The notes: generated from the letters alone by a model not told the origin. A stretch of DNA of 64,000 bases from Elusimicrobium minutum (GCA_020723765.1 DYIF01000001.1:7127-71126), one strand, 5' to 3'; positions 1-48,134 are shown, counted from the stretch's first letter. Made by a program: numbers and translations.

Positions 1-1879
1 TCGCCATTTCGGCGGAAAACGAAGATTTTAATCCCAATATGTTTAAATTTTTGATCTGAATGTCGGAATCGTAAACAAATATGCTTGAGGCTATGTCGTT
101 AATCGAAGGAGCTCTCTGAGATCTGGCCGAGCCCTGATAAAGAGCGGTAAAGCCGACCGTGGCGTTATTAAATATATCGTACGATAATCTTCCGCCGGCA
201 AGAGTCTGGTTGGATGAGCCGAAAGGAGAAACCTCGTAAACTATATCTATAGTGCTTGTCGGAGTTATTTTGTCCGTATTATAGAAGGTCAAAAATCCAG
301 CGTCGTAATCTATATAATAATCCTGGTTTTTATTGAGTTTAACTCCGTCTATTTTTATAATTTCTGAATTAAGAACTATGTTTGGCTCCAAATAAAAAGT
401 TTTTATTCTGTAATAATACTCGACGTGAAGTATTCTTTTGGCTATGGGACTCGGTGAATAAGTTATGGGGTCCGGAGTCAAAGGGTCGGTATCGGAACCG
501 AAAGGAGACAAAAGATGGATAACCCCTTGCTCGAAATCTATTTCTATGGTTTCCGGATATTTTTGAACCGGGTTTAGCGAAGAGCCTATCTCCTGCCTGT
601 TAAGATTTTGAACTTTAAATATGAAATTACCCTGTCCGTTGTCTCTGACTATGTTTGTTTGACCGATATAATAATAAGTTTTAACCTCGTTATTCCATCC
701 TTTTTCCGAAGGATTGGATATATATATGTCGTCCTTTGTCTTTAATAATTTATATCTTCCGGATCCGTTTTCGTCCCTTAACCACGAACCGTTTGAATTT
801 TGATAATCTATTATTAAAACGTCCTGCGAATTTAAGTTCCTTGAAAAAATGACAAGCCCTTTATTATAATCTATGGTATAATCTATACCTCTTACAAGCT
901 GTTTAAATCTTCCGGAATAAACCGTGGAAATAGAAGACAAATCGTCGGCCGTTATAGAAGATATTATTATCCCGTCCACGACTTCGTTTGTTTGCTGGTC
1001 TATGTATATTTTTTCGGTACCGGGTTTTATAGGCAGTCTTGAAACCTGAGAATAAGTAATATCGTAATACTTTCTTCTTATATAAGAACTATCCATTATA
1101 TCTACGGTTTGGAATTGAGTGTTGCCGGTAAACTGTTTTGTTTTAGTCTGACCTTTGGTTCTCGAACCTATTAAAGTAGCTTTAAATCTGTTGGCTTTTA
1201 TATCCGCTCTTATTCCGAACAACTGCTTATTATAAGAGACAAACTCGGTTGAGGGAAGAGATAAGTCTATATCTCCGAAGGATATATTTTGCACCACCTC
1301 CTGCGGGTCTCCCTGATATGTAACGGATATGTCCTGTTTGTCCGTTTTGGTATCGTCGTAGTCCACGTTAACGGTAATCTTTTCGCCTATTTTTCCTTGC
1401 ATTCTTATTTGCAACTGCTGGGTTATATCGAATAAACTCGTGGATTTTTCTCTGGTAGTATTTGTTTGTTCGTTTATGTATCTTTTGCCGGAGTAATTAA
1501 CGGATATTACCTTTCTTCCGGTAACGCTCAATGAAGTTCCGCTATCCAAAAATTCGATCTGAGGAGCCATAGCTAAAGGCTGAGTGGAAACCGAAACGGT
1601 CGAAACGGAAATTTTTTCGTCTTCGATTTCAATTTCGCCGTTTTCCATTTTGTTTAAAAAATTTCTCCACTTCCCCTCGTCCCAGTCGAAATTGCCTTCC
1701 TCGGTTTTTTTTTCTTTTTTCGTTTTTTTATCGCTTTTTTCTTCCAATTTAATATACTCGGTGGTTTGAGGTTTTAACTCTTCGTAATCCGAAATATTAT
1801 CGATAAAGTCCGAAAAATCGAAGGAATAAGCCTTAAAACTTAAAAATAAAATAGATATAAAGCACAAAAGCTTTTTCAT
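1..1879 (-). CDS. Large exported beta-rich protein, C-terminal part lies beyond the window start; SprA-like (T9SS translocon family) by motif memory
   Basis: The minus-strand frame is open from the ATG (cat at 1877-1879) to position 1. I checked the translation by hand at both ends (MKKLLCFISILFLSFKAYS... and ...LGLKSSFSAEMA). It has a signal peptide and a K/E-rich linker. The stretch QLQIRMQGKIGEKITVNVDYDDTKTDKQDISVTYQG...FGDIDLSLPS...QLFGIRADIKANRFKATLIGSRTKGQTKT recalls the SprA N-terminal signature. It is absent from the ORF track because it runs off the edge. Confidence 0.55.
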   Translation of the reverse strand, partial: MKKLLCFISILFLSFKAYSFDFSDFIDNISDYEELKPQTTEYIKLEEKSDKKTKKEKKTEEGNFDWDEGKWRNFLNKMENGEIEIEDEKISVSTVSVSTQPLAMAPQIEFLDSGTSLSVTGRKVISVNYSGKRYINEQTNTTREKSTSLFDITQQLQIRMQGKIGEKITVNVDYDDTKTDKQDISVTYQGDPQEVVQNISFGDIDLSLPSTEFVSYNKQLFGIRADIKANRFKATLIGSRTKGQTKTKQFTGNTQFQTVDIMDSSYIRRKYYDITYSQVSRLPIKPGTEKIYIDQQTNEVVDGIIISSITADDLSSISTVYSGRFKQLVRGIDYTIDYNKGLVIFSRNLNSQDVLIIDYQNSNGSWLRDENGSGRYKLLKTKDDIYISNPSEKGWNNEVKTYYYIGQTNIVRDNGQGNFIFKVQNLNRQEIGSSLNPVQKYPETIEIDFEQGVIHLLSPFGSDTDPLTPDPITYSPSPIAKRILHVEYYYRIKTFYLEPNIVLNSEIIKIDGVKLNKNQDYYIDYDAGFLTFYNTDKITPTSTIDIVYEVSPFGSSNQTLAGGRLSYDIFNNATVGFTALYQGSARSQRAPSINDIASSIFVYDSDIQIKNLNILGLKSSFSAEMA

Positions 1880-1961
1880 AAAAAAATCCCGACCCTTAAG
1901 GTCGGATATATATAAATAATTATATATAATAGTTATTAAGTTTATATGAAATATTTGTTTT

Positions 1962-3074
1962 ATGTTTAAACTTAAGCCTTATAAGGTAGAAACCGTTTTT
2001 GCAGATTGTTTTATAAGATATCTTATGGTATCGTTAGTAATATTTTCATCGATATTTTTTATATACTCTTTCATACAAATAATCAACGAAAAAGACATAG
2101 TAAAGGGAATATCGGGATACTACTTCGCAAAAACACTATTATATCTTATACCTTCTATAATCTCCACCTCGCTTCCTTTTTCGATAATATTCTCGGTTTT
2201 TTTTGCGGTAGGGGAATTATCTTTGCGAGGAGAGCTTAACGCCATAAGAGTAGGCGGATATTCTTACGGCGAGATATCGAGAACTTTCGTAATTTTTATG
2301 ATTATTCTTACCGGAATATCCTATTTTCTCATAAACGACATAGCGCCCAAATACAATTTAAAATCAAGAGAATATTTAAGAACCATGATAAACAGGGTAA
2401 CCAACATAAACCTCAAATCCGGCTCATTTGAAAATATATCTTCTTTCACAATATACTCGGATAAAATTTACGGCAACGAAATGAACAAAGTATCCTTGTT
2501 TGAAAACGGCCGAACACATTATGACTCTGATTTCTTTATAAAAATAGAAGCGGAAAAAGGGATTTATAATATACTTAAAGAAAAGGGGATATCCATAACT
2601 CTATACGACGGTAAAATATACCACATAGACAAAGAAAAATACCACATATTAAACCTCGGCAAATTCGAAGAGTACTTCGCTTTTATCCCCTTTGAAATAA
2701 CGCAAAAAGATTATTATACCCCTCCCAAATACCTCAAAACTTCAGAACTAAAAACAATTTTAAAAAACAAACTCGAACCCAAAGAAATTTACAAGATAAA
2801 AAAAGAAATAACTCAAAGAAGATCGGCGGTAGTATCGATAATAATATTCGGAGTAATATCGGCGATACTCGCATTTTATTTTGAAAGAGACAGTAAATAT
2901 TTCGCTTTTTTATCGAGCCTTGGAATTATATTATTTTATTATGCGGTAAATATTTTTTCCAACATAATAGCCGAAAAAAATCCCAAATTTACGGGAATAG
3001 TTTTTTTCGCCTCTCCATTTCTTATGGGTGTATTGTCCTCATATTTCTATATTTTTAAATTGAGGAATAAATGA
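1962..3074 (+). CDS. LptF/LptG (YjgP/YjgQ) family LPS export permease
   Basis: 370-aa polytopic membrane protein with a central periplasmic beta-jellyroll-like insert. It overlaps a paralogous second permease gene by 4 bp, as in lptFG pairs. Confidence 0.75.
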   Translation: MFKLKPYKVETVFADCFIRYLMVSLVIFSSIFFIYSFIQIINEKDIVKGISGYYFAKTLLYLIPSIISTSLPFSIIFSVFFAVGELSLRGELNAIRVGGYSYGEISRTFVIFMIILTGISYFLINDIAPKYNLKSREYLRTMINRVTNINLKSGSFENISSFTIYSDKIYGNEMNKVSLFENGRTHYDSDFFIKIEAEKGIYNILKEKGISITLYDGKIYHIDKEKYHILNLGKFEEYFAFIPFEITQKDYYTPPKYLKTSELKTILKNKLEPKEIYKIKKEITQRRSAVVSIIIFGVISAILAFYFERDSKYFAFLSSLGIILFYYAVNIFSNIIAEKNPKFTGIVFFASPFLMGVLSSYFYIFKLRNK

Positions 3075-4102
3075 AGAAAATATCTTCGTATATAACAAAA
3101 AAATTTATTTTTTACTTCATAGCGATAACCCTGATAATATCATTATTCGTAGCGGTTATAAATCTATTCGAAACCGCTAATATGATGACGAGAAAAGGAG
3201 AAGATATATCGTTTAAAAGCGTGCTATTTCAAATACCCTATTATCTTCATCTTATAACCCCATTGATAACCATGCTCTCGGCGTTTATGACATTCAATTA
3301 TTTCGTCTCGACAAACGAGTATAAAGCCATCTACGCCTCCGGATATTCGAAAACGGTTTTCCTATATCCGCTAATAGCGCTGTCTTTGGCGATAATGCTT
3401 TTTTCTTTGCTGTTTGCGGATAAATTTTCCGCTCAACTATACAGAAAAGCGAAAAACAAAAGCGAAAAACCGGAACTTGCAAATTTATATATAAAAAAAG
3501 ACAACTTACTTATAGGAGCTCAAAAAGCGGATACTTCTGGCATCCTAAAAGACGTATATATAGAAGACGTATCGACGAAAAGAAAAATAAAAACGGATAC
3601 GCTTAGATGGGACAAAAAACAAAACGCCTGGAAAGCCCGAAACGGAATATTAATAGAAGAATCAAGCCGGGTTAAAACTTCTTCTTTCACATCCATAAAC
3701 ATAGATTTTATACCTGAACCGAATATAATAATAATAACCGATCTAACGGACGGAAACTCTTACGGAATATTTGAACTTATTTCGCGAATAATAAAACTAA
3801 GAAATCTTTCCATGAAAACGACAGAGGAAACCGTATTCGTATATTTTAAAATCTCACTTATACTAATAAATTTCATAGCCGTAATAATCGCTTTCATTTT
3901 CGCTCAAACCGATATAATAAAAAATAAAAGCTTATCGGCTTCGGTAGCGATGCTAATATCTTTCATAATCTGGTTTGGGGTGATAGCCGCAAAAAGAGTG
4001 GCGGATATAGAAGTTATAGAACCGTATATGGTAGCTTTGATTCCTCACTCGATATTTATAATCGGATCTTTATATATAATATACAGGAAAAAGCTGATAT
4101 AA
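3071..4102 (+). CDS. LptF/LptG (YjgP/YjgQ) family LPS export permease, second subunit
   Basis: 343 aa with the same architecture as the upstream gene. ATGA start/stop overlap at 3071-3074. Confidence 0.75.
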   Translation: MKKISSYITKKFIFYFIAITLIISLFVAVINLFETANMMTRKGEDISFKSVLFQIPYYLHLITPLITMLSAFMTFNYFVSTNEYKAIYASGYSKTVFLYPLIALSLAIMLFSLLFADKFSAQLYRKAKNKSEKPELANLYIKKDNLLIGAQKADTSGILKDVYIEDVSTKRKIKTDTLRWDKKQNAWKARNGILIEESSRVKTSSFTSINIDFIPEPNIIIITDLTDGNSYGIFELISRIIKLRNLSMKTTEETVFVYFKISLILINFIAVIIAFIFAQTDIIKNKSLSASVAMLISFIIWFGVIAAKRVADIEVIEPYMVALIPHSIFIIGSLYIIYRKKLI

Positions 4103-4104
4103 AT

Positions 4105-4782
4105 TTATTTTTTAGCCGCACATATCGCGACAGAGCCGGGTAAAAGATTTTTCATATAAACTGCGTAAAAATGGAAAGAAAGTTTTTCGTTAAATTTTTC
4201 CGCTTTAAAAGAATATATTGAGCTTTTAAGAAAGGAATAAGATTTATAAGAACCTGGCAAAAATATTTTTATTGCAAGCAAAACCGTTTCAAGATAAATT
4301 TTAATTAAAAATTTAAATAAAAAATTCGCCGGCATCGACGTTTCCACGTTTACGAAAAATCCTCCTTTTTTTAAAACTCTTTTAATTTCGTTTAAAGATT
4401 TATCGAAATCGCTTGCAAAAAATAGGTTTCTTGTCGCAAAAGATACGGTAACCAAATCGAAACTCTCGTCATCGAAAGGAAGATTTGAAATATAAGAATT
4501 TAAAAAATTCGCTTTTATGTTTTTCTCTTTGGCTATTTTAATCATATTTTCGTTGGCATCCACTCCGGTAACGACCGCACCCGGAAATTTCGAAACCAAA
4601 AACTCCGTAAAATCTCCGGTTCCGCAACATATATCGCATATACTCAAAGGATTTGAATTCAATAGCCTAATGTATTCAACGGTTTTTCTTCTCCAGTATT
4701 TATCCAATCCTAAAGTCATCAGCGAATTCATTAAGCGGTAATGAGAATATATTTTATCGTAAAGTTTTACAATTTCGCTCAT
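4105..4782 (-). CDS. Class I SAM-dependent methyltransferase, UbiE/MenG (demethylmenaquinone methyltransferase) family
   Basis: N-terminal YDKIYSHYRLMNSLMTLGLDKYWRRK matches the UbiE/MenG YDxMNxxxSxGxxxxWR signature. SAM motif I is DICCGTGDF. Confidence 0.75.
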   Translation of the reverse strand: MSEIVKLYDKIYSHYRLMNSLMTLGLDKYWRRKTVEYIRLLNSNPLSICDICCGTGDFTEFLVSKFPGAVVTGVDANENMIKIAKEKNIKANFLNSYISNLPFDDESFDLVTVSFATRNLFFASDFDKSLNEIKRVLKKGGFFVNVETSMPANFLFKFLIKIYLETVLLAIKIFLPGSYKSYSFLKSSIYSFKAEKFNEKLSFHFYAVYMKNLLPGSVAICAAKK

Positions 4783-4820
4783 AAATAAAATTGTATAATA
4801 ATTTAAAAAAGGGAGGGTAT

Positions 4821-5330
4821 ATGAAGAAAGCGGCGATGTTTATAGCTTTTAAAGGATTTAGAGACGAAGAATACGCCGAGCCTAAAAGAATAATGGAAAA
4901 AAGCGGGGTAAAAGTGGAAACCATATCCACATCAAAAGGAAAAGCCGTCGGTAAAATAAAAATAACCGCGGACGTGGATAAAACCTTAGAAGAAATAAAT
5001 CCTGATGATTACGAAATACTCGCGCTTGTGGGAGGTCCCGGAGCTTTGGCGGAATTAGATAACGAAAAGGTCAGAAAAATATTTTCCGATTTTTATTTTA
5101 AATCCAAACCCATAGCGGCGATATGCATATCTCCGGTAATACTGGCCCATGCGGGATTGTTGAAAGGGAAAAAAGCGACCGTATGGCCGGACGGCAAAGA
5201 CGAACTTGTTAAAAACGGCGCGATATATACGGGGAATCCCATAGAAATAGATTCCGGCATAATAACCGCAAACGGACCTCTTGCGGCGAAAGAATACGGG
5301 GAAGCTATATTAAAACTAATCTCAAAATAA
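4821..5330 (+). CDS. DJ-1/PfpI family protein
   Basis: AICISP nucleophile-elbow Cys motif and LVGGPG, typical of DJ-1/PfpI. I moved the start to the ATG at 4821, which sits behind a GGGAGGG SD (track ORF starts at 4791). Confidence 0.8.
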   Translation: MKKAAMFIAFKGFRDEEYAEPKRIMEKSGVKVETISTSKGKAVGKIKITADVDKTLEEINPDDYEILALVGGPGALAELDNEKVRKIFSDFYFKSKPIAAICISPVILAHAGLLKGKKATVWPDGKDELVKNGAIYTGNPIEIDSGIITANGPLAAKEYGEAILKLISK

Positions 5331-5333
5331 AAA

Positions 5334-5359
5334 GGCCCGCATAAAGCGGGCCCATTTTA
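5334..5359. terminator. Bidirectional intrinsic terminator between convergent genes
   Basis: ggcccgc-ataaa-gcgggcc 7-bp GC stem, with an A-run on the left and cattttat on the right. Confidence 0.6.
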
Positions 5360-5379
5360 TAAAAAAACCGACAAACAAA

Positions 5380-6291
5380 CTATTTCTGAACTCTGTTTGT
5401 CTCGCCTTTATCCATATAAGTATCTTTGGATATTTTTCCTATTCTCGAAAAGCCCCATTCTAAATAATAACCTCTGGTTTCAAAAAGTTTATCCGAGCTT
5501 CTATAACTATCGTTATTATTGGTTTCCGGTTTTACAAGCTCGTCTTCGGAAAATTCCATCGAATAGTTATTGGAAACATCGAATGTGAATTCTTTGGTGC
5601 CCAAAGAAGAATCGAACCAGTTGGCTTTATCCTTTTTAAGCTCTATCTTTATTTTTACTTTTTCTCCGGCGTATTCTTTCGCCCATTTATCCGATACCTT
5701 AAATGTATATTTCTTGGTATCTTTGTTGTATGAAAACTCGCTATAGTTAAGACCTTCCAAATCCGGCTTCATGGCTACTTTATACTCCGGATAAAGCTCA
5801 AACACCACGTCGTTATATCCGACCTGTTTGGTTTTATATTTATATCCCGCTTCTATGGTATATATATCGAGCCATCTTCCTTCCAAACATACCTCGAAAG
5901 TTTCTTTTTCCCACGGCAAGAGTTTTCTTTGTTTTATGTTTATTTGAGCCTGGCTTCTATATGTTTGATAAAGCCTTTCGTAGCAATGTTGCTGAGGTAT
6001 CTGCTGGCCGTTTGGACCGGGAACGTATGTCGTATAGCACTCGGTTCTGTATTCGTCGCTTCTAAGCCATACCTTATCGCTCATAATTTCGTTGTCGCTC
6101 GGACCAAAATTGAACCTTGCGCAGTCTCTGGTGGTTCTTATGCTTTGGGGAACCCCGTATTTCACGCCGGGAAGCGGCGCATAAGTAGAATCTACAACGA
6201 CCTTATTGGTATTTACTCCCTGGTCGAAGTTAACCTCGGCGTAAGATGCCGATGTTAACGATAATAATACTATACTTATTAACATTTTCAT
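5380..6291 (-). CDS. Secreted protein of unknown function, paralog A (resident-type C-terminus)
   Basis: Signal peptide MKMLISIVLLSLTSASYA. The first ~135 aa are nearly identical to the 7108-7827 product, and the C-terminal 170 aa are unrelated to it. AGGAGG SD. Confidence 0.7.
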   Translation of the reverse strand: MKMLISIVLLSLTSASYAEVNFDQGVNTNKVVVDSTYAPLPGVKYGVPQSIRTTRDCARFNFGPSDNEIMSDKVWLRSDEYRTECYTTYVPGPNGQQIPQQHCYERLYQTYRSQAQINIKQRKLLPWEKETFEVCLEGRWLDIYTIEAGYKYKTKQVGYNDVVFELYPEYKVAMKPDLEGLNYSEFSYNKDTKKYTFKVSDKWAKEYAGEKVKIKIELKKDKANWFDSSLGTKEFTFDVSNNYSMEFSEDELVKPETNNNDSYRSSDKLFETRGYYLEWGFSRIGKISKDTYMDKGETNRVQK

Positions 6292-6388
6292 TATTACTCC
6301 TCCTGTTAAAATATTTCAAAGATTTTGCCCATCTAATTATATTATACGATAAAAAAAGATTTTTTCAGCTTAAAAAAGTCCTAAAAAA
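5879..6388. repeat. Copy 1 of a ~510-bp direct repeat (5' part of the secreted-protein gene plus its promoter region)
   Basis: Hand alignment with 7415-7923 gives about 11 substitutions and 1 indel. Positions ~6060-6320 are identical to the other copy. Confidence 0.9.
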
Positions 6389-6442
6389 AATCAAAAAAAC
6401 TTACTATACAAAATTAGGACTTTGGGGAAACGAGATAACCTT

Positions 6443-7111
6443 CTATCTGCTTATAAACTCAAATGTTTGAATAAAAAATGCAAATAGATTTGCAAGAAAA
6501 TGGATAAAAAAATTTATAAATTTATTCTTTTCTTTTTCATAAACATAACACAAAAAAAAACCAATATAAAAAGCAAATAAAAACTTATTTAAATGCCCTA
6601 TTGAAAAAAGTAACGAAGAAATCATAGATGCTTTTAAAAAACTAAATTTAATATTTCTCAAATGATTAAAAATTACAAACCTAAAAAACAGTTCCTCCGA
6701 AAAGGGTACTACAATTAAAATTAAAATAAAGTAAAAAAATATGAAATTAGCATTCTTAAAATAATCATCATAGTATTTTTCGCTTTTTAAAATAATATTT
6801 ATATCAAAATTTAATAAAAAGAGAAGCGATATTAAAACAAATAATGGGATAATTATCATTATAAAATATTTAAGAGAAATCCAAAAATATTTTAACATTT
6901 CATATTTAATTTTTAGTAAAACGATAAAATCAAACATTTTTTTGTGTTTAAATTTATAAGAAAAATAAAAAAAAATTATGTTTTGTATATAAAGAAAAAA
7001 CAAATTAGATATAGAAAACTTTAATATTTTTTCAAAAACGACTAAAACTATAGCAATAGCAAAATTAGCAAAAAATGCAGGGAATATCAGCTTTTCAAAA
7101 AGCAAACTCAT
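6443..7111 (-). CDS. CPBP family intramembrane glutamic endopeptidase (CAAX protease / Abi bacteriocin-immunity-like)
   Basis: Polytopic, very AT-rich gene. Motif 1 is PFSEELFFRFVIF (EExxxR) and motif 2 is FSIGHL (FxxxH). The start overlaps the upstream stop as ATGA (7108-7111). Confidence 0.75.
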   Translation of the reverse strand: MSLLFEKLIFPAFFANFAIAIVLVVFEKILKFSISNLFFLYIQNIIFFYFSYKFKHKKMFDFIVLLKIKYEMLKYFWISLKYFIMIIIPLFVLISLLFLLNFDINIILKSEKYYDDYFKNANFIFFYFILILIVVPFSEELFFRFVIFNHLRNIKFSFLKASMISSLLFSIGHLNKFLFAFYIGFFLCYVYEKEKNKFINFFIHFLANLFAFFIQTFEFISR

Positions 7112-7827
7112 TTACTATACGCCCTTTGAATTCCATGCAAAACTTCCATCTCTTGAGAGGTTAAACCATCTGGAGTATACGTTGATTCACAATATTCTTC
7201 CCAAACTTCTCCTGCTAAGCATTTAACACAATCATATATTATACCATCTCTTATAACTCTATAAAAATATTTACACAAACCAACTATCGCCGAGGCATTT
7301 TTATCAAAAATTTTTCTATTGTTAGGATGTAATTCTAGAATTTCTTTATAACTCAAATTATTTTTAATTTTATAATTGTAAACGCTATTCAACATATAAA
7401 CTTCGATATATTTCCCTTCCAAACATACCTCAAACGTTTCTTTTTCCCACGGCCAGAGTTTTCTTTGTTTTATGTTTATCTGAGCCTGGCTTCTATATGT
7501 TTGATAAAGCCTTTCGTAGCAATGCTGTTGGGGTATCTGTTGTCCGTTTGGACCGGGAACGTATGTCGTATAGCACTCGGTTCTATATTCGTCGCTTCTA
7601 AGCCATACCTTATCGCTCATAATTTCGTTGTCGCTCGGACCAAAATTGAACCTTGCGCAGTCTCTGGTGGTTCTTATGCTTTGGGGAACCCCGTATTTCA
7701 CGCCGGGAAGCGGCGCATAAGTAGAATCTACAACGACCTTATTGGTATTTACTCCCTGGTCGAAGTTAACCTCGGCGTAAGATGCCGATGTTAACGATAA
7801 TAATACTATACTTATTAACATTTTCAT
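7108..7827 (-). CDS. Secreted protein, paralog B, with an alternative Cys-rich C-terminal domain
   Basis: Same signal peptide and N-terminal 135 aa as paralog A. It has a distinct ~105-aa C-terminus (…GLCKYFYRVIRDGIIYDCVKCLAGEVWEEYCESTY…) encoded by CpG-poor DNA. Confidence 0.7.
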   Translation of the reverse strand: MKMLISIVLLSLTSASYAEVNFDQGVNTNKVVVDSTYAPLPGVKYGVPQSIRTTRDCARFNFGPSDNEIMSDKVWLRSDEYRTECYTTYVPGPNGQQIPQQHCYERLYQTYRSQAQINIKQRKLWPWEKETFEVCLEGKYIEVYMLNSVYNYKIKNNLSYKEILELHPNNRKIFDKNASAIVGLCKYFYRVIRDGIIYDCVKCLAGEVWEEYCESTYTPDGLTSQEMEVLHGIQRAYSK

Positions 7828-7923
7828 TATTACTCCTCCTGTTAAAATATTTCAAAGATTTTGCCCACCTAATTATATTATACGATAAAAAAGATTTTTT
7901 CAGCTTAAAAAAGTCCTAAAAAA
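7415..7923. repeat. Copy 2 of the ~510-bp direct repeat
   Basis: See 5879-6388. It includes the identical SD, the TATAAT-containing upstream region and the first 135 codons. Confidence 0.9.
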
Positions 7924-8000
7924 CCAAAATATTTTTTCCTATCCTTTACTGGGACTTATGGGACTTACGGACCAAAATTAAAAATAAAAGATAAATCAAA

Positions 8001-9071
8001 TTACTCTATAACCACTTCTTTGGGTTCGGTAAACTCGCCTTCAAATCCTATAAGGTCTATATAAGATATTCTGAAATAATACTTGCCCTTGGGAACATAA
8101 TTTGAAAGATTTAAGTTTTTAAAAACGTCGAATTTCCTATCTAAAACTATGTTTTTGAACTCCTTATCTTTCGCCACCTGTATTCTGTAACCGCTAACGG
8201 CTTTGCTCAAATCTATGTTTACGTTATTGGTTAATTTTAAATTTTTCGCTTTGGACTGATCCCTAACCTCCACGTCGTCGGTTTTGGCGTCGGCATATTT
8301 TACCGATATGACATTTTTTTGAACGTTAAAATCTATTTTCTGGTTCTTTACCTCTTGAATTATATCGGGCATTTTAGAAGGCGCGGAAGGAACCGAATTA
8401 AGTTTAACCTCGGTTGCAAAACCTTCTTTTAAACTTACTTTTTCGCCCTTGGCTTCAACCTCCGCTTCTCCTTTGTATACCTGAACCACAGTGGAGAGGT
8501 CCTCTTTTATCTTTGCGGCAAGTTCGGTATTCTTCGTTTTCGGCGTAATTTTAGCCGATACCGTTATAATCGAAGTATCTTTCGCTCTTACCTGACCCGA
8601 AAGAAGCCTTATATCGGTATCTTTGGTTTCCGGGGGCTTTAAGATTACCATAGAATTTGAAAATAGATTTAAAACCTGCCCGGTGTAAAATCTGACATCG
8701 GCGTAAGAATTTGCGTTTGTTCTTACGGTATCTCCTTTAAAAAGAGCTTTTACCTTAACGCCCTCGTCCCACTCCGATTTGCCCACGGCTCTTACTCTTA
8801 CGTCTCCGTTAATTTTTTCAAAATGAGCGGCTCTATACTCTTCTTTAATCAAATTTACCGGAACCTTTAATTTTTTTCCGGTAAGAGGCTGATAAGGATC
8901 TGGAGGAAGATTATTATATCTTATTATCTCGTCCCATTTCCTCGGATCTTTAAGATATATTTGAGAAATCTCCCATAAGGTCTGTCCGGGTTTTGCTTCT
9001 ATAGTTTGAAATTCGGCGGAATTCAATTTAAAACATAAAAAAAAGAAAAAAGAAATAACGAATAATTTCAT
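8001..9071 (-). CDS. Exported LysM plus FecR-domain protein
   Basis: Signal peptide, then LysM-like GQTLWEISQIYLKDPRKWDEIIRYNNL and FecR-like INGDVRVRAVGKSEWDEGVKVKALFKGDTVRTNANSYADVRF. Confidence 0.65.
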   Translation of the reverse strand: MKLFVISFFFFLCFKLNSAEFQTIEAKPGQTLWEISQIYLKDPRKWDEIIRYNNLPPDPYQPLTGKKLKVPVNLIKEEYRAAHFEKINGDVRVRAVGKSEWDEGVKVKALFKGDTVRTNANSYADVRFYTGQVLNLFSNSMVILKPPETKDTDIRLLSGQVRAKDTSIITVSAKITPKTKNTELAAKIKEDLSTVVQVYKGEAEVEAKGEKVSLKEGFATEVKLNSVPSAPSKMPDIIQEVKNQKIDFNVQKNVISVKYADAKTDDVEVRDQSKAKNLKLTNNVNIDLSKAVSGYRIQVAKDKEFKNIVLDRKFDVFKNLNLSNYVPKGKYYFRISYIDLIGFEGEFTEPKEVVIE

Positions 9072-9329
9072 AATAATATTGTAGCAGAGGTTTGAAAGAT
9101 AAACAAGAGAGTATTTTAGGGGTTAGAGAATAGGCAATAGAAATAGAGAGGTAAGGATTTAGTATGGGATATGGGGCCAAAGACCTATTTACAATTGGGT
9201 CTTTTGGAGGTTGAGACGTTGATTTTTATCAATTAAATTGTATTTAGTTGCTTGTAATCTTCAAGATTGGTTGAAGAGCATCCACCTAAAGACCCACATC
9301 TTTAGTCACCAGGCAAAAGGAAGGTATTT

Positions 9330-10331
9330 ATGCCTTTAACCAATCTAATCAAAAACATAGCAAAACTGCTACTAACGATTTTTTTATTTCAATATTACTC
9401 CGATTCCGCCGAAAGTATAGAAACATTAAAATCAAACCAGTATCTTTCTTATAGTAGTTATGTAAATAAAAGCAAAATATTTTCAGACTCCATCCCCATA
9501 GCCTCGCCGGAAGTCGATACGACTACAAAAACCTCCTGCGATTTTAAGGTTTATTTCATAGACGTAGGACAGGGGGATTCAGAATTTATACAACTACCCA
9601 ACTGCAAAACGGCCTTAATAGACGGGGGACCTTCGGCGTCTAAAACATCCAAATTCGTCTCTTTTTTAAAAAGCAATAATATCAACTCCATAGATTATGT
9701 TGTTCTGACCCATCCTCACGCCGATCACTTCACGGGACTCGGATATGTATTCGATAATCTTAACGTTGCCAATTTTTACGATACTAAAGAAAACAACCCG
9801 AAATCTTCCACTCTTCAAAAAGTAAGAGAAAAAGCGAAAAACAAAGAAGGGCTCAACATTATTTATCCGTCCGCCGGAGATACACTTAACTGGGACAAAG
9901 ATGTTTCGGTTAAAGTTCTTCATAGCTGCGACGTTCCCGGAGAAAGCTCTCAGGGAGACGTTTTAAATAATTGTTCTATAGTAATAAAAATGACTTATCA
10001 AAACACTTCGATACTTTTTATGGGAGACAGCGAAGAAGAAGTCGAAAAAGAGCTTATTTCCAAATACGGCGAAGAACTCAGAGCGGATGTGATTAAAGTG
10101 GCTCATCACGGAAGCGCCACAGCATCCTCCGCGGAATTTTTGAAAACAGTCAAACCGAAAAAAGCATACATAGAAGTTGGAAAGAACAGCTACGGTCTAC
10201 CTGTGACGGATATAATATCCAGAATAGAAAGCTACGGCGCCACAGTTCATAGAACAGATATCGAAGAAACAATGGAATATAGAATAATTAAAGCCGTAGA
10301 AAACGAAAACATCCCCGTAGAAGAAAAATAA
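9330..10331 (+). CDS. Exported MBL-fold metallo-hydrolase (ComEC C-terminal domain-like)
   Basis: VLTHPHADHFTGL (HxHxDH) and VIKVAHHGS motifs. YFIDVGQGDS is typical of the ComEC/Rec2 lactamase_B domain. Confidence 0.75.
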   Translation: MPLTNLIKNIAKLLLTIFLFQYYSDSAESIETLKSNQYLSYSSYVNKSKIFSDSIPIASPEVDTTTKTSCDFKVYFIDVGQGDSEFIQLPNCKTALIDGGPSASKTSKFVSFLKSNNINSIDYVVLTHPHADHFTGLGYVFDNLNVANFYDTKENNPKSSTLQKVREKAKNKEGLNIIYPSAGDTLNWDKDVSVKVLHSCDVPGESSQGDVLNNCSIVIKMTYQNTSILFMGDSEEEVEKELISKYGEELRADVIKVAHHGSATASSAEFLKTVKPKKAYIEVGKNSYGLPVTDIISRIESYGATVHRTDIEETMEYRIIKAVENENIPVEEK

Positions 10332-10371
10332 ATCTTTGTTTTAGCTTTAAATTATTGCGCAGTTAAAAACA

Positions 10372-12468
10372 TCATTTTGACGATATAACTTTCCCGAATT
10401 CGTCTTTTGAAAGATTTATCGGAAACTCAAAAACAAACTTGGCTCCCATATTCGGCCTATACTCCGCCCATATCTTACCCAAATGAGCTTCGGTTATATG
10501 TTTTGAAATCGTAAGGCCGAGCCCCGTTCCGCCGGCTTTCTGGCCTTTAACCTGTTCGAATTTCCCAAAAACTTTGTCTATGTACTCTAAAGGTATTCCT
10601 TCTCCGGTATCCTCTACCCAGGATTTAAATTTCCCCTCATGTGTCTCAAAACCCACGGTTATCGTTCCGTTATCGGGAGTAAATTTAATGGCATTTCCTA
10701 TAAGATTTATATAAAGTCTCTCGATGAGATTTGCGTCAGCGTTTATTTCGACATTGCTATCGCCTTTAATTTCAAATTTTATAGCTTTTTTTTGAGCCAA
10801 AGGCGCCATCAAATCTACGGATTTTTTGACCAATTCATAAACGTTAAATTTGGTTATATTAAGCTCCATCTTTCCGGATTCCATTTTGGCTATGTCGAGT
10901 ATGTTATTTACCATCTGCAAAAGCCTGAAAGCTGCCCTGTCTATTGAAACCACCATATTCCGTTGATTTTGATTTATCGGTCCCGCTATCTCTTTCAACA
11001 AAAACTCCGCGAAACCCTTTATGGCGCTTACAGGGTTCCTAAGGTCGTGGGTTATGGAATGCAAGAAATCTTCTTTTATTTTTTCGAGTTCCTTATCGTA
11101 TGTAATATCGTAAAAAGTTATAAGATATCCTATGGTATCTTCTTTATCTTTCATTTTTATGTCGTTTATAAAAACCCTGTAAAATCTTTTATAATTTTTA
11201 TGCTCCAATTCGAATTCATACTGTTTTTTATCGGAATTTATAGCCGTTTTAACCGAATCTTTTACATGCTCGTTTTTTATCGATTCGAATATGTCTTTAC
11301 CTTCTAAATTTTCGGACTCCGCTCCTATTATGGATACGGCCTTTCTGTTTATAAGTTGTATTTTGTTTTGAAGATCCACCATTATTATTCCTTCTTCGGT
11401 CGAATACATAACGGCCTGAGTGTTCTGCCTTTCCATCAATATCTTCTCTATCTGCATTTTGGAATATTTATCCAGCTCGGACACCATTAGATTAAAATTT
11501 TCCGCCAGATCTTCAAGTTCGTCTTTCGTAGACACCTTAACGCTTACCGAAAAATCTCTTTGGGCTATTCGCTTGCTCGCCTCTATAAATTTTATTATTG
11601 GATTTGAAAGTCCTTTAGACAGGAAATAAGAAACGAATACGACTATCAAGGAAAAGGTTATAAGAACCGCTATCGCTTCTTTTTTAATGCTCATGGCGTA
11701 TTTATAGGCGTCCGAAACCTCTTGAATGGATATTATCGAAACGTTTATATCGGAAAGATTCGATATGGCTCCGAGATAATCGTTTTCGGCGTAGCTCATC
11801 TCCACCGTTCCGTCGGCTTTGTTTGAAATGTAATTTATTATGGGTTCGGATTTAACTATATCTTCCCAGGATAATTTTTGATATCCGGATATTTTAAAAA
11901 GCACCTTTCCTTCTCGGTTTACTATCAATAATCCGCTTTTTTCCCCTATATTTTCGGCGCCGATGTCTTTTAAAAATTCGTTTTCGTCTATTTCAATTTT
12001 TATGAAATAGCTTTTTTTAAAAAAAACAAAGACCATTCTTCCGTTTTCGAAAGAAACCGCTTTGCCGTTTTTGCGGCTTAAATCGAGCAAAGATTTGGTT
12101 ATATTTTTGGATTCGTATTTCTGACTCTTTACTATTTTTATTATCTCGTCCCCGTCATTATTTAAAAGAGAAAGAGAAGATATTTCATCGTAAGAATTAA
12201 ATAGGGACGATAACATTTTTTGTCTTTCGTTCCATTCCCCGCTTGTCCTAAAAAACTCGTCTATGCTTGCGACCATCTTATCGTAATAATCGATTTTAAG
12301 CGTAACCGATTTTTTTATTCCCTCTACCCTGTTTATGTGAAGCTCCGAAATTGGAGTTTTTATTCCAAACTGCGCTTTATTTATCAGGCTTATTCCGAGC
12401 CATATAAGAGGGAAAAGAGTGAAAAAGAGAATCAAGAAGAGAAATTTATAAAAAATTTTAAACTTCAT
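10372..12468 (-). CDS. Sensor histidine kinase (extracytoplasmic sensor, HAMP, PAS, HisKA, HATPase_c)
   Basis: H-box SITHDLRNPVSAIKGF, N-box LIGNAIKFT, G-boxes DTGEGI and GGTGLGL. Two TM segments flank a ~250-aa sensor domain. No response regulator is adjacent. Confidence 0.85.
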   Translation of the reverse strand: MKFKIFYKFLFLILFFTLFPLIWLGISLINKAQFGIKTPISELHINRVEGIKKSVTLKIDYYDKMVASIDEFFRTSGEWNERQKMLSSLFNSYDEISSLSLLNNDGDEIIKIVKSQKYESKNITKSLLDLSRKNGKAVSFENGRMVFVFFKKSYFIKIEIDENEFLKDIGAENIGEKSGLLIVNREGKVLFKISGYQKLSWEDIVKSEPIINYISNKADGTVEMSYAENDYLGAISNLSDINVSIISIQEVSDAYKYAMSIKKEAIAVLITFSLIVVFVSYFLSKGLSNPIIKFIEASKRIAQRDFSVSVKVSTKDELEDLAENFNLMVSELDKYSKMQIEKILMERQNTQAVMYSTEEGIIMVDLQNKIQLINRKAVSIIGAESENLEGKDIFESIKNEHVKDSVKTAINSDKKQYEFELEHKNYKRFYRVFINDIKMKDKEDTIGYLITFYDITYDKELEKIKEDFLHSITHDLRNPVSAIKGFAEFLLKEIAGPINQNQRNMVVSIDRAAFRLLQMVNNILDIAKMESGKMELNITKFNVYELVKKSVDLMAPLAQKKAIKFEIKGDSNVEINADANLIERLYINLIGNAIKFTPDNGTITVGFETHEGKFKSWVEDTGEGIPLEYIDKVFGKFEQVKGQKAGGTGLGLTISKHITEAHLGKIWAEYRPNMGAKFVFEFPINLSKDEFGKVISSK

Positions 12469-12941
12469 AATACGGAAAGATTCTGAGACAATCCTTTCAA
12501 ATAAACCTCTATCCTATAAATATAATATTCCAATTTATAAATCGTTTTTTTAAATTCCGATTTTTGATTTATCTTATTTTTAGCCTCTTTTATCGCCGAA
12601 GAGGTCTGATCCAGCTCGAACTTTATCTGATATATCTGGGATTTTATCTCGCTTTTATTTACAGAGGAATAAATCGAATCCAGCTTCTCCACTGTTTTCG
12701 GTATTATCTTTTCTATCTCGATTAAATCGGATTTTTTTATGGATTCTATTTTATTGCTTTCTATGGCTTTTTCTATTTTAAGTTTATGGGAGGCGTAAAC
12801 GCTTGAAAGCTTTAAAACCGATATATAATCCCTGGACTCGAAAAGATTTTCGTAAGCGATATTTGACAACTGAGAATAACCAGAGAACCCAAAAAACAAA
12901 ATAGATAAAAATAAAAAAAACGATATTTTAAATACGCCCAT
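12465..12941 (-). CDS. Small exported coiled-coil protein, unknown function
   Basis: N-terminal hydrophobic signal/anchor. ATGA overlap with the kinase gene and overlap with the rdgB 3' end indicate operon membership. Confidence 0.5.
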   Translation of the reverse strand: MGVFKISFFLFLSILFFGFSGYSQLSNIAYENLFESRDYISVLKLSSVYASHKLKIEKAIESNKIESIKKSDLIEIEKIIPKTVEKLDSIYSSVNKSEIKSQIYQIKFELDQTSSAIKEAKNKINQKSEFKKTIYKLEYYIYRIEVYLKGLSQNLSVL

Positions 12942-13545
12942 AATATATCACTCTTTCCAGATAAGGTTTTATAAGTTCCAGAGCTTTTCTTCTATGGCTT
13001 ATTTTATTTTTTGTCTCAAAATCCATTTCCGCCAGAGTTTTATCCAGAGCCGGAACATAAAAAACCGGGTCATAACCAAATCCGTTTTCCCCTCTTAAAT
13101 TTTCGGCTATATATCCTTCTATTTCCCCGACCTCGGTATGGGTATCGCCATCAGGAGAGGCTATGGTAATCGCGCATTTAAAAACGGCTTTTCTATCCTT
13201 AAATTCTACGTTTTTAAGAGCGTTAAGAAGTTTTCTGTTATTGTCCGCATATGTGCAACCCTCTCCCGCCCACCTGGCGGAATATACTCCCGGCTCTCCG
13301 CCTAAGACCTGGACAAAAAGGCCGGTATCGTCGGCTATGGAATAAAGGCCCGTAAATCTAGCGACTTCCACCGCTTTTTTCATCGAATTTTCTTCTATTG
13401 TCTTGCCGTCTTCCAGCACATCCGGGATATCGGGATAATCCATAAAACTTTTTAATACGACATCCCCGGAAACGATGTCTTTTATTTCTTTTATTTTGTT
13501 TTTGTTTTTACTCGCTATCATTATCTCTTTGGTAACTATTTCCAT
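12928..13545 (-). CDS. rdgB: RdgB/HAM1 family non-canonical purine NTP pyrophosphatase
   Basis: IASKNKNKIKEI, SIADDTGLFV, GGEPGVYSARWAG, GENGFGYDPVF and SHR motifs are typical of RdgB/ITPase. Confidence 0.85.
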   Translation of the reverse strand: MEIVTKEIMIASKNKNKIKEIKDIVSGDVVLKSFMDYPDIPDVLEDGKTIEENSMKKAVEVARFTGLYSIADDTGLFVQVLGGEPGVYSARWAGEGCTYADNNRKLLNALKNVEFKDRKAVFKCAITIASPDGDTHTEVGEIEGYIAENLRGENGFGYDPVFYVPALDKTLAEMDFETKNKISHRRKALELIKPYLERVIYYGRI

Positions 13546-13588
13546 AATAATTGCAAAATTCGGCTTAAAAAAATATAAAATTTAAGTA

Positions 13589-32090: not shown

Positions 32091-33350
32091 ATGTCTTACT
32101 ATAAAAGATTGCAAAAGGACCTTAAAGAATGCGCCGAAAAAGGAATAATAACCGATTTACAGGCGCAAGAATCTTATAATTTTATTTATTCAAAAAAGAA
32201 AAAACTTCCGCAAGCTTCTCATATCGTAATAGCAGTTGGCGGTCTTTTGATATCTTTAGGATTAATACTGATAATATCTTTCAACTGGAATAAGATAGGA
32301 GATTTAACTAAAATAATATCCTATCTTCTAATATATTCTTTGATAGGCATATGCGCCATAAAATACTCTGAAAAAAGCTTAATAACAATACCATTAAATA
32401 TAATATGGTTTTTTATGCCCGCGTTAGGATTTGGGTTATACGGTCAAATATTTCAGTTAAGTTCAGACCCAGTAAAACCTTACATAGCATGGGCCATAAT
32501 TTGCGCTCCTCTCGTATGGTTTTACGCAAAAAAATATCTCGTATATCTATTTGAAGCTCTGGTATATGGGATAATAATATATCAATTTTTTGAAGAAAAC
32601 ACATCCTTTACCATACTTACATACAATATTAAAAGTTGGGATTTTATAAAATCTTTTATAATCATTTCCGTTTTTATTTTATTTATCAAGCTTTTACATG
32701 AAAAAGTTTTAAAAGAAAAGACTACCGAAAGAGTTTATTTTATTTCGATTTTAACTTTATATCAAATTATATCTCATTTCTTAAAAGACAGATTCTCTCC
32801 ATTCATCATAGTTTTCGCCATTTTTATGTTCATAAGAAAATATAATTTTTTATATCTATTAATACTTCTTTTGCTTCTTTATATATTCTCATTTAAAGAT
32901 CCTTATTCCCGCTATGATTATAATTACGAAATCGATACTTTTAGTTATGTTTTATCGTTTATTATATCTTTAATCGTATACCTTCTAACCTCGATTAAAA
33001 TTTTGAAAAATAAAAACTTATTATCCTATCCTCTTATCTCTTTGCTTTTAATCTCGTTTACAATTCCATTTCTGAATTTTGAAAAACAAATATTGGCTTT
33101 GATAATGAATCCTTTCATAGTTTGGTTTTCAGTATCTTTAATAATATTCGGAATAAATAATAGAGAGAAAAAAATAGCAAATCTGGCGATTTATTACACG
33201 GCTTTGATAATAATAACAAGATTTATAGACCTCTTTGGTTTTGCTTCTTTGTTAAAAAGCGGCATAGGATTTATAACTTCCGGATTATTATTAATCTTAA
33301 TCGCATTGGGATTAAACAAACTTAGGAAAAAACTTACGGAAAGTTTATGA
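32091..33350 (+). CDS. Polytopic membrane protein (DUF2157-like)
   Basis: Soluble N-terminal ~40 aa followed by more than 10 TM helices. It overlaps the following GDYXXLXY-type gene by 4 bp, the arrangement I remember for DUF2157/GDYXXLXY clusters. Confidence 0.45.
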   Translation: MSYYKRLQKDLKECAEKGIITDLQAQESYNFIYSKKKKLPQASHIVIAVGGLLISLGLILIISFNWNKIGDLTKIISYLLIYSLIGICAIKYSEKSLITIPLNIIWFFMPALGFGLYGQIFQLSSDPVKPYIAWAIICAPLVWFYAKKYLVYLFEALVYGIIIYQFFEENTSFTILTYNIKSWDFIKSFIIISVFILFIKLLHEKVLKEKTTERVYFISILTLYQIISHFLKDRFSPFIIVFAIFMFIRKYNFLYLLILLLLLYIFSFKDPYSRYDYNYEIDTFSYVLSFIISLIVYLLTSIKILKNKNLLSYPLISLLLISFTIPFLNFEKQILALIMNPFIVWFSVSLIIFGINNREKKIANLAIYYTALIIITRFIDLFGFASLLKSGIGFITSGLLLILIALGLNKLRKKLTESL

Positions 33351-45352: not shown

Positions 45353-45525
45353 AAACTACTACCGCTCAAAAACATAAAAAATGATTATATTTTATACACT
45401 TTTTATGTGGATATCACTGTTATATGGCAACACATAACTAACGGTGAAAAAGTTCTAATCCAGCCACATATCTCACGCAAACTAAATACTAAAGATATTG
45501 ACTTAATTTATTGGTAGGCAAATTC

Positions 45526-45563
45526 CGTCCACCTACCCCTAAACCCAATGGGATTTGAACTCA
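45526..45563 (+). repeat. 38-bp perfect direct repeat, left copy (upstream of fic)
   Basis: cgtccacctacccctaaacccaatgggatttgaactca, identical to 46849-46886. Confidence 0.95.
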
Positions 45564-45574
45564 TTTAATTTGAA

Positions 45575-45600
45575 TGCAAACATAAAATGTTATATTTGCA
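45575..45600. promoter_or_regulatory. Inverted repeat TGCAAA-N14-TTTGCA upstream of fic (candidate operator)
   Basis: Read directly. A second, related palindrome lies 40 bp downstream. Confidence 0.35.
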
Positions 45601-45614
45601 GTTTTATGTTTATA

Positions 45615-48125: not shown

Positions 48126-48134
48126 TATACCTCC

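Follow-up and report, generated by a model that had tools for sequence, protein, structure and literature searches.

The paralogues tufA and tufB are an example of bacterial genes that undergo concerted evolution by short-tract gene conversion, and pilE/pilS and vlsE are silent-cassette systems for the variation of surface proteins. Polymorphic toxin loci, such as the contact-dependent inhibition (CDI) locus cdiA-CT/cdiI and Rhs loci, diversify via recombination of orphan C-terminal/immunity cassettes with a full-length gene (PMC3482391), while CPBP/CAAX genes in class II bacteriocin loci have been proposed to contribute to self-immunity (PMC8692603). The locus analysed here, located on a 64,000-nt stretch of DNA (the window) from an uncultured Elusimicrobiota (Elusimicrobiales) bacterium, combines known phenomena (an accessory cassette, orphan-style recombination, and concerted evolution) in an uncharacterised protein family. 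It contains an intact gene for a 303-aa secreted protein (geneA, 5380..6291), a 239-aa chimeric open reading frame (ORF; geneB, 7108..7827) that shares a direct repeat with geneA and, between these two, a gene for a 222-aa CPBP/Rce1-like intramembrane protease (6443..7111). These genes and their conserved left neighbour, a LysM/FecR-domain gene (FecR gene, 8001..9071), are all encoded on the minus strand; coordinates are those of the window.

Related assemblies contained three alleles of this locus within one species: a cassette-free allele, a truncated allele, in which a promoter-less, 5'-truncated ORF and the CPBP gene form a cassette in front of geneA, and the full-length allele of the window. 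We consider it probable that the window carries a recombinant full-length allele of this three-state polymorphism at the FecR/LysM-geneA locus, which is the best explanation of the combined sequence comparisons described below.

As in the orphan cassettes of polymorphic toxin loci, a 5'-truncated, promoter-less fragment has a short conserved segment in common with a full-length gene, encodes a different C-terminus followed by a small partner gene, and would yield a full-length gene by recombination via the shared segment. It is likewise strain-variable and compositionally foreign. Unlike in these loci, the full-length gene is preceded and not followed by the cassette, and recombination would have duplicated the 5' part without displacing the old C-terminus. 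Moreover, the scaffold is a 300-aa Sec-exported Ig-like protein instead of a carrier of the type V, VI, or VII secretion systems (T5SS, T6SS, T7SS) or an Rhs or filamentous carrier, the 67-aa orphan C-terminus has no toxin signature and is partnered by a CPBP protease, each locus has a single cassette, and the truncated ORF is apparently selected as a protein. A polymorphic-toxin trafficking domain (T5SS/T6SS/T7SS, Rhs, filamentous repeats, MafB) was not found: Pfam and NCBIfam gave no match and Foldseek matches were generic. Alternative C-termini were represented by three tail types in the family and, within the species, by a single cassette that is either present or absent. Three contigs (L080, L081, L082) carried orphan cassettes with a homologous segment at their 5' end, and the window appears to be a recombinant via codons 101-138. 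These observations supported an orphan-cassette-like behaviour at the DNA level. An earlier note on this DNA had stated that the locus mirrors polymorphic toxin loci; the structural part of that comparison (an orphan-like cassette, apparently re-armed) stood, while its functional part gained no support.

Abi/CPBP class II bacteriocin loci share with the window a CPBP gene immediately downstream of the end of a small Cys-containing polypeptide, with predicted co-transcription. They differ from it in their double-glycine leaders, dedicated C39-ABC exporters, and peptide-pheromone regulatory genes, none of which was seen here, and in that the present host is diderm and its 'peptide' forms the tail of a protein of 239 or 145 aa. 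No ABC/C39 gene was present in six neighbouring ORFs (Pfam) or within approximately 5 kb in the annotations of L001 and L080. As described for tufA/tufB, copies within a genome were closer to each other than to their orthologues, differences occurred in 100-300 bp tracts, and nearly all surviving differences were synonymous; unlike in tufA/tufB, conversion was restricted to a portion of a single domain in a chimeric gene, where it would maintain the recombination arm of a cassette. The resemblance to pilE/pilS and vlsE lies in a promoter-less, 5'-truncated copy that has conserved segments in common with an expressed gene, whose product is secreted or located at the surface, and exchanges sequence with this gene; the difference lies in the single cassette, the stable second gene, and the partner gene that the cassette brings along.

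The Direct Repeat and Its Junction

Precise alignment of positions 5879-6388 (copy 1) and 7415-7923 (copy 2), previously reported as direct repeats, showed 510 and 509 bp, respectively, with 97.6% identity, 11 mismatches, and one 1-nt indel. Similarity was far above chance and the repeat ends were sharp, with identities of 17-53% per 30-bp window outside both ends. Each copy comprised 97 bp of upstream sequence, including an AGGAGG Shine-Dalgarno (SD) sequence and a TATAAT-like -10 element, and codons 1-138 of geneA (copy 1) or geneB (copy 2), in agreement with an earlier estimate of the SD, approximately 100 bp, and approximately 135 codons. Between the copies, an AT-rich insert of 1,026 bp encoded an alternative C-terminus and the CPBP gene, whose start overlaps the geneB stop codon in an ATGA at 7108-7111.

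In codons 1-138, geneA and geneB differed by 11 substitutions, ten synonymous and one leading to L125W, with a ratio of non-synonymous to synonymous divergence (omega) of 0.02 (Nei-Gojobori). The L-to-W change had been recognised before, but the count then given (ten, nine of them synonymous) was one short, codon 138 lying outside the repeat as delimited at that time. This dN/dS check also bore out the proposal of purifying selection on the shared part. All 11 substitutions were found in codons 81-138, near the junction as already noted, and coding positions 1-242 were identical; the promoter, which had been described as identical as well, was not, since the upstream 97 bp differed by a single substitution (position -40) and a 1-nt indel (position -65). 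Synonymous divergence (dS) of the repeat, at 0.13-0.2, was comparable to divergence between strains.

BLASTP aligned 168 residues of the geneA and geneB products, with similarity persisting past codon 138 at approximately 30% identity. In the structural model of the geneB product, the first beta-sandwich extended to residue 171, and domain 1 (residues 50-171) had a predicted local distance difference test (pLDDT) score above 90 in both models. Because homology runs past codon 138 and this codon lies inside the modelled beta-sandwich, the repeat is predicted to end within one fold and not at a domain or module boundary. The idea of a promoter plus N-terminal domain as the duplicated module was therefore not supported.

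The AT-rich codons 139-172 of geneB (7312..7413), a diverged homologue of the corresponding geneA codons that encodes the last strands of beta-sandwich domain 1, showed 15-32% identity to every family member and were equally distant from all. Codons 173-239 and the stop (7108..7311) encoded an unrelated, orphan Cys-rich tail of approximately 67 aa, with Cys at residues 185, 200, 203, and 213. Of the 105-aa alternative C-terminus proposed in the earlier note, the approximately 67-aa tail was thus indeed unrelated to geneA, whereas the first approximately 34 aa were homologous to it. With the C-terminal 101 aa of geneB as query, an exhaustive HMMER search gave 0 matches among 1.84 billion representative proteins. 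The tail yielded a low-confidence model with no fold match and no toxin-like fold (Foldseek), and no match in Pfam, PHROGs, or PADLOC.

Base composition supported a foreign character of the AT-rich cassette. GC contents in the insert were 15-24%. The GC fraction at third codon positions (GC3) was 0.17 for the CPBP gene, the lowest among the 57 ORFs of the window, 0.19 for the tail, and 0.21 for geneB codons 139-172, as compared with 0.40-0.46 for geneA and 0.37-0.45 for core genes of the window. CpG depletion of the insert was rejected: the CPBP gene contained 6 CpG, with 5.9 expected from composition. Its earlier description as very AT-rich and nearly CG-free was thus correct as to AT-richness, while the scarcity of CG corresponded to base-composition expectation.

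Three Alleles Within One Species

The three alleles, all within one species of approximately 96% average nucleotide identity (ANI), were marked by junction k-mers (FecR-stop/TTTCGTATGTTAATG, CPBP-stop/AAGGTTATCTCG, and the cassette-free spacer). In the cassette-free allele (L084-L089), the FecR gene was followed by a 164-bp spacer, geneA, and a DJ-1 gene, with flanks approximately 96% identical to the window; its geneA belonged to the same 90% cluster as window geneA (P0121), a protein carried by 13 contigs. More distant relatives (72-82% aa identity) had the FecR gene directly followed by a geneA homologue, without a cassette. The window, L001, and L079 carried the full-length allele, which was represented among the proteins by P0116 and P0119. 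The truncated allele (L080, L081, L082; protein P0117) showed similarity to geneA only from codon ~101. In this allele, the order was FecR stop, approximately 6 nt, ATG TTA ATG TTT AAT G... / ATGTTAATGTTTAATG, the divergent segment also found in window geneB, the tail, the ATGA-coupled CPBP gene, and an intact geneA, and the ORF of 143-145 aa lacked a promoter, a signal peptide, and codons 1-100. The comparison of relatives for presence or absence of the cassette, which had been suggested earlier, thus recovered all three states. With cassette-free strains in the same species and distant relatives without a cassette, the arrangement is not that of a universal housekeeping locus.

The segment common to the full-length and truncated alleles, hereafter the stub (codons 101-138, 7414..7527), was geneA-like and is the putative right-hand recombination arm. 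The patch that distinguished the full-length from the truncated allele (7528..8040) comprised the last approximately 40 nt of the FecR gene, the native 173-bp spacer, and codons 1-100, and was collinear with the junction of FecR gene and geneA in cassette-free strains. Cassettes belonged to two haplotypes, H1 (window, L001, L079, L081) and H2 (L080, L009, CPBP part of L004), separated by a dS of 0.26-0.29 and with correspondingly diverged junction sequences. The truncated form was found on both haplotypes and the full-length form on H1 only.

Two further observations were made on individual cassettes. In L009 (100-330), a 7-nt deletion in the H2 cassette split geneB, such that the TGA of the N-terminal part overlapped an ATG (TGATG); the 59-aa ORF thereby opened encoded the Cys-rich tail alone and was still ATGA-coupled to the CPBP gene. 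In GCA_040753895.1, contigs L081 and L004 both ended inside the CPBP gene and carried different cassette haplotypes: the 5' part (L081) was identical to the window, and the 3' part (L004) had a dS of 0.03 from L080 and of 0.34 from the window. This clash suggests a mixed-strain bin or a recombinant cassette.

Origin of the Repeat and Exchange Between Its Copies

Alignment of the cassette-free contig L084 with the window yielded two blocks, of L084 4-5413 with window 12831-7415 (95.5%), running through the FecR gene and spacer to geneB codon 138, and of L084 4905-10912 with window 6388-380 (96.2%), from position -97 of geneA onward. Their overlap of 509 bp was exactly the repeat. The distal upstream region of geneB differed from the cassette-free spacer by 4/67 mismatches and a 9-nt indel, and that of geneA by 19/45 mismatches. 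The sequence between the CPBP stop and the repeat (6389..6442), a cassette-borne 'X' version of a spacer hairpin element, resembled the FecR-gene spacer of the relative L008 (z=10.6) and was unlike that of cassette-free strains of the species.

Comparison with the truncated allele of L081 delimited the patch on both sides. To the right of codon 101, no differences occurred over 570 nt (414 nt of geneB and the first 156 nt of the CPBP gene) and the 100-bp bins that cover approximately 900 bp leftward of FecR position 943 were free of mismatches. The differences consisted of a segment of approximately 470 bp, present in one allele and absent from the other, and seven FecR sites, six of them within the last 40 nt, which located the left boundary of the recombination to the last 40-130 nt of the FecR gene. 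At three of these six sites (1043, 1050, and 1059), truncated alleles of both haplotypes shared one state, from which the window differed; at these sites it resembled cassette-free strains and the outgroups L052 and L006. Since the truncated junction string was absent from the window, the truncated allele did not arise from the full-length one by simple deletion. Recombination via the stub best explains the repeat, in view of the collinearity with the cassette-free allele and the approximately 0.5-kb patch relative to a truncated-allele strain.

Short-tract gene conversion between the copies, which the earlier note had raised, was documented by several sequence patterns. L080 geneA and its own stub differed at 1/108 sites, and the L080 stub and window geneB at 9/108; paralogues therefore clustered by genome. 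Contig L079 was identical to the window over 1.8 kb, except for seven sites at gene positions 44-186 of geneB, and at all seven the window geneB was identical to window geneA. These clustered sites point to an A-to-B conversion tract of at least 143 bp (7642..7784) and at most approximately 281 bp. Junction codons of L009 and L080 (GRHLDV) were intermediate between those of geneA (GRWLDI) and geneB (GKYIEV), and P0114 was a geneB with the geneA-type L125. Variant collapse in metagenome assembly could mimic the window/L079 case, but is less likely for L080, where the shared segment is approximately 115 bp.

Selection on the cassette was assessed between H1 and H2, with truncated alleles as both endpoints of the comparison. 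Codons 139-239 showed 11 synonymous and 12 non-synonymous differences (omega ~0.23; binomial P=0.0015 against neutrality), and the CPBP gene 27 of each (omega 0.19-0.20; P=1.6e-7). As this purifying selection was measured between truncated alleles, the signal-peptide-less ORF and the CPBP gene appear to be maintained as a functional pair and not as a silent remnant.

From these results, the following course of events is proposed. The ancestral state would have been the FecR gene, a 164-173-bp spacer, geneA, and then DJ-1. The cassette, which in some strains sits directly behind the FecR stop, would be composed of a 5'-truncated fragment of a very divergent geneA homologue (from codon ~90-100 to 171, without promoter or signal peptide), the fused tail of approximately 67 aa, the translationally coupled CPBP gene, and a foreign version of the spacer hairpin. 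Gene conversion would have held the 114-bp stub, the most conserved part of the fragment, near-identical to the resident geneA. In the window lineage, a truncated-cassette allele and a cassette-free-type allele would then have recombined homologously, with one crossover in the last 40-130 nt of the FecR gene and the other inside the stub. This would have set a complete native spacer with promoter and SD, the signal peptide, and codons 1-100 before the cassette and left geneA intact downstream. GeneB would thereby have become a full-length, independently promoted chimera that is predicted to be exported, with the 510-bp repeat as a by-product, and later short conversion tracts (143-281 bp in the window) would keep homogenising the two copies. 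That the truncated allele is older than the full-length allele is a polarity in which we place considerable confidence. We infer that the cassette is of horizontal origin, from an unsampled AT-rich Elusimicrobia lineage.

The high identity of 97.6% and the sharp ends of the repeat, together with a dS in the range of between-strain divergence, would also fit a simple in-situ tandem duplication of promoter and N-terminal domain, followed by foreign insertion at a domain boundary and without a prior stub. This scenario is very improbable, as homology extends past the repeat end into AT-rich DNA, the junction lies within a folded domain, paralogues cluster within genomes, and cassettes of sister strains, on two diverged haplotypes, hold only codons 101-138 of the supposedly duplicated part. 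That the arrangement is an assembly artefact, caused by a collapsed or duplicated repeat or a chimeric contig, is hardly credible: although the sequences are metagenome-derived and strain divergence is block-mosaic with one breakpoint inside the repeat, the geneB/tail, tail/CPBP, and CPBP/geneA-upstream junctions were all present in L001 and L079, which stem from independent samples, subsets of them were present in L080, L081, and L009, and copy-specific variants in codons 81-138 recurred across assemblies. The duplication reported earlier is thus real, with these five independent contigs spanning it wholly or partly.

Several observations weigh against recombination via the stub as proposed above. 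Synonymous variants of geneB at positions 243, 288, 297, and 300 (codons 81-100) occurred in no sampled geneA allele, which means either that the donor allele is unsampled or that the ancestral geneB/stub was longer. The putative truncated ORF has no SD and begins 6-7 nt past the FecR stop. A donor lineage for the cassette was not found: the CPBP clusters P0112 and P0113 both fall within the clade as far as examined, and the tail had no match among the 1.84 billion proteins searched. One metagenome-assembled genome (MAG; GCA_040753895.1) carries H1 and H2 on separate contigs and, with all comparison sequences being metagenome assemblies, strain mixing or bubble collapse in repeats could produce some of the mosaics.

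Two other explanations were discarded. An old full-length xenologue combined with large conversion was replaced once truncated alleles and the collinearity with the cassette-free allele had been found. A recent sweep of the cassette, to which the zero divergence between window and L001 had pointed, was rejected because the identical block runs 7 kb past the cassette and because the CPBP part of L004 is approximately 7.7% diverged from that of the window.

Across window positions 1-13600, divergence from L001, L004, and L081 was block-mosaic, with 0% stretches abutting stretches of 4-5%. The breakpoint relative to L001 lay inside the repeat, at ~6180-6250, and patches relative to L081 were located at ~9000-9199, 10200-10399, and 12000-12199. 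This pattern indicates either that homologous recombination is frequent in the population or that the metagenome contigs are chimeric.

The hairpin-like element of the FecR-gene spacer (AAGTCCTAA ... TTAGGAC followed by a T-run) occurred in two diverged versions, X and Y, and was also found in the spacers of L006, L008, and L011. In the window, Y (7924-8000) precedes geneB and X (6389-6442) precedes geneA, while L080 (7098-7295) has both versions in tandem upstream of geneA. The duplicated upstream hairpin matched no Rfam family and gave folding z-scores of -1.5 and -0.2; no RNA element is claimed.

Proteins Encoded at the Locus

In an AlphaFold model of the geneA product, based on the family alignment (mean pLDDT 85), a Sec signal peptide and a disordered linker preceded two beta-sandwich domains, one at residues ~50-171 and the other at ~181-300. 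Four invariant Cys (residues 57, 85, 103, and 135) all lie within domain 1. The geneB product combines a signal peptide, a mosaic domain 1, and the orphan tail. More than 110 protein clusters belonged to the geneA family; every source-named cluster was from Elusimicrobia, and nearly all members were approximately 300 aa long and alignable from end to end. About 100 of 110 clusters shared one fixed architecture of this length, without a tail. The family had not been recognised in the earlier reading of the sequence. No Pfam annotation was present on any member, and scans of geneA and geneB against Pfam, NCBIfam, PHROGs, and PADLOC gave no match. Foldseek searches with both models against PDB, and with the geneA model against BFVD, returned generic Ig/FnIII-type tandem sandwiches alone (TM-scores <=0.3). 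The top match for geneB, a 'lysenin pore', was rejected (probability 0.14), and a sequence search of PDB with the family profile gave no match. Conserved neighbours of distant family members were housekeeping genes (a pyridoxal phosphate (PLP)-dependent enzyme and others) and were uninformative. The geneA product is thus predicted to be a conserved secreted protein.

The product of the CPBP gene matched PF02517 over residues 124-210 (E=1.7e-16; 60.7 bits versus a cut-off of 22.4), which, with the overlap at 7108-7111, confirmed the ATGA-coupled CPBP/Abi-type protease previously assigned to 6443-7111. The motifs EExxxR/FxxxH/HxxxN/D were intact (EELFFR at 139, FSIGH at 169, HFLAN at 204) and were also kept in the 88%-identical haplotype of L009 and L080. 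CPBP proteins usually have 6-8 transmembrane (TM) helices; the present product was hydrophobic throughout, with 3 strong TM segments by a strict Kyte-Doolittle scan. A homologue search recovered two close clusters alone, P0112 and P0113, with 100% and 88% identity, respectively. JGI metagenome and viral contigs, scanned on the basis of CPBP, yielded no match, and a CPBP gene was nearby in 0/69 related loci of GTDB species representatives.

Sorting signals of the myxosortase/MrtJ type consist of a signature motif, a hydrophobic helix, and a basic cluster, and are accompanied by a cognate CPBP protein that scores above cut-off. The tail of geneB ended in ...EMEVLHGIQRAYSK and, by inspection, had no hydrophobic helix; scores of the CPBP protein in the NCBIfam models were 24 bits versus a cut-off of 75 for MrtJ and 22 versus 270 for MroQ.

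Other C-Terminal Modules in the Family

The geneA family contained three unrelated types of Cys-rich C-terminal tail, with no mutual similarity by profile comparison. Type 1 is the tail of geneB. Type 3 was a conserved extension of approximately 60 aa (C.L.MD..Y.C.Y.C.DGSYIS.PNPFP...HGC...) that followed the full 300-aa body in about ten clusters; its carriers were P0034, P0037, P0043, P0045, P0047, P0058, P0064, P0082, P0083, P0110, and L002 6001-6738. In P0110, domain 1 was immediately followed by the type-3 module, which made a 245-aa 'short form'. Type 3 had no conserved partner gene downstream.

Type-2 tails were observed in two places. MAG BIN6 (JAINCQ01; 78% aa identity) had an independent cassette at the same locus, distributed over L052 3774-4765 and L010 1290-2542. 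On L052, the FecR gene was followed by a 50-nt spacer, a gene copy without promoter and codons 1-120, the type-2 tail, and an ABC ATPase gene; the other contig carried a gene for a MacB-like permease, a 231-bp duplicate of the FecR 3' end (98.7% identical), a full spacer, and an intact gene. The two gene copies were identical in amino acid sequence for approximately 87 codons and then diverged, and the locus looks like the product of a Campbell-type insertion and conversion. On L083 (736-4595; GCA_026419275.1), P0125 had a body of approximately 300 aa that was close to geneA by inspection, and a type-2 extension of approximately 85 aa with the pattern DCW.GNEV...CRLVCCLASP...VTC..DC. It was followed by an overlapping 362-aa, 7-TM ORF (no Pfam match) and by genes for an ABC ATPase and a MacB-like permease. 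Together, these genes possibly constitute a dedicated export or protection operon.

Possible Functions of the Tail and the CPBP Protease

The tail protein and the CPBP protease are likely to work together, as a substrate-protease or an effector-protector pair, since their genes were always co-inherited, ATGA-coupled, and co-selected. Toxicity and immunity as such are pure conjecture. Scans with Pfam, NCBIfam, HMMER, PHROGs, and PADLOC showed no toxin, bacteriocin-leader, sorting-signal, phage, or defence signature in the locus proteins.

Compatible with the recombination history proposed above, the Cys-rich tail could be an exported antibacterial effector, as in polymorphic toxins or bacteriocins, with the CPBP protein conferring self-immunity; the truncated allele would then be a silent orphan effector/immunity cassette and the window allele its activated form. 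The variable C-terminus followed by a coupled membrane protein fits such a role, as do the homology stub of the orphan-like truncated cassette, its apparent re-arming by recombination, its strain-variability, and its foreign composition. CPBP/CAAX genes in bacteriocin loci are thought to aid self-immunity (PMC8692603), and MAG BIN6 has an unrelated type-2 tail at this locus and L083 has one elsewhere, in both cases adjoining a different membrane system, an ABC ATPase with a MacB-like permease. Against it, the tail had neither a homologue nor a toxin-like fold, about 100 of 110 family clusters lacked a tail, a CPBP gene was absent from all 69 related loci, and PADLOC and PHROGs gave no match. 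Export would depend on a Sec signal peptide only, as no double-glycine leader, C39 exporter, T5/T6/T7SS, or Rhs/filamentous element was seen in this diderm host. In a search of the review on polymorphic toxins (PMC3482391), CPBP came up a single time, as distantly related to the PrsW peptidase and not in an immunity role. Purifying selection on the signal-peptide-less form (omega ~0.2), which is probably the older one, fits an intracellular protein better than a silent exported toxin. We regard the toxin-immunity interpretation as a minority hypothesis, rather unlikely and on a par with processing of the tail by the CPBP protease.

Such processing, in which the protease would cleave or mature the tail-bearing protein and the geneA-derived part would be an evolutionary passenger, has analogies in Rce1/CAAX processing, MroQ/AgrD, and the CPBP-type 'sortases' of C-terminal sorting signals. 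All three catalytic motifs were kept in both cassette haplotypes, ATGA coupling and co-inheritance held in every cassette copy, and the tail stayed with the CPBP gene whether on an exported scaffold, on a signal-peptide-less stub, or, in L009, as a separate 59-aa ORF. The tail, however, has no C-terminal CAAX motif and, by inspection, no hydrophobic helix or basic cluster like those of known CPBP-processed sorting signals; the MrtJ and MroQ scores were far under their cut-offs, and no second substrate was seen. A substrate-protease pair is rather unlikely too.

A broader proposal, to which we attach a lower probability still, is that of an Elusimicrobia effector system. In such a system, a Sec-exported scaffold of two beta-sandwiches would carry swappable Cys-rich effectors, each with its own membrane protector or handler (CPBP for type 1; ABC ATPase and MacB-like permease for type 2). 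Promoter-less orphans, kept recombination-competent by gene conversion, would serve as storage and be activated by recombination, and the window would represent a freshly armed allele.

The locus adds to what is known in several ways. It presents three allelic states (empty, promoter-less cassette, and cassette with complete 5' region) in natural populations of an uncultured phylum, with recombination boundaries resolved to tens of bases. A short segment maintained by conversion would act as a docking site at which an accessory cassette becomes part of a predicted full-length exported protein while the resident gene is kept, and such recombination would account for the long direct repeats left behind. 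Newly defined are an Elusimicrobia-wide secreted family, three Cys-rich modules, and a CPBP protease paired with a specific small protein. If the pairing is true, as effector/immunity or as substrate/protease, it offers a tractable entry to CPBP function in diderm bacteria, which is poorly understood; if not, the locus is still a clean natural case in which concerted evolution is limited to a portion of a protein domain.

Other Features of the Window

An intrinsic-terminator-like hairpin (5333..5353, minus strand) was located after geneA and was the sole such site in the geneB-CPBP-geneA stretch. Between the FecR gene and a histidine kinase gene, a ComEC-type gene of the metallo-beta-lactamase fold with a predicted signal sequence (9330-10331) was encoded on the opposite strand. 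Its base composition was native. It is another lineage-specific insertion, as it was missing at this position in L007 and L008, where the kinase gene directly precedes the FecR gene.

A second AT-rich block was found at 43332-51663 (8 ORFs, GC3 0.19-0.23), together with single low-GC3 ORFs at 62033-63676 and 32091-33350. With a composition like that of the CPBP cassette, these three regions may be further horizontally acquired islands.

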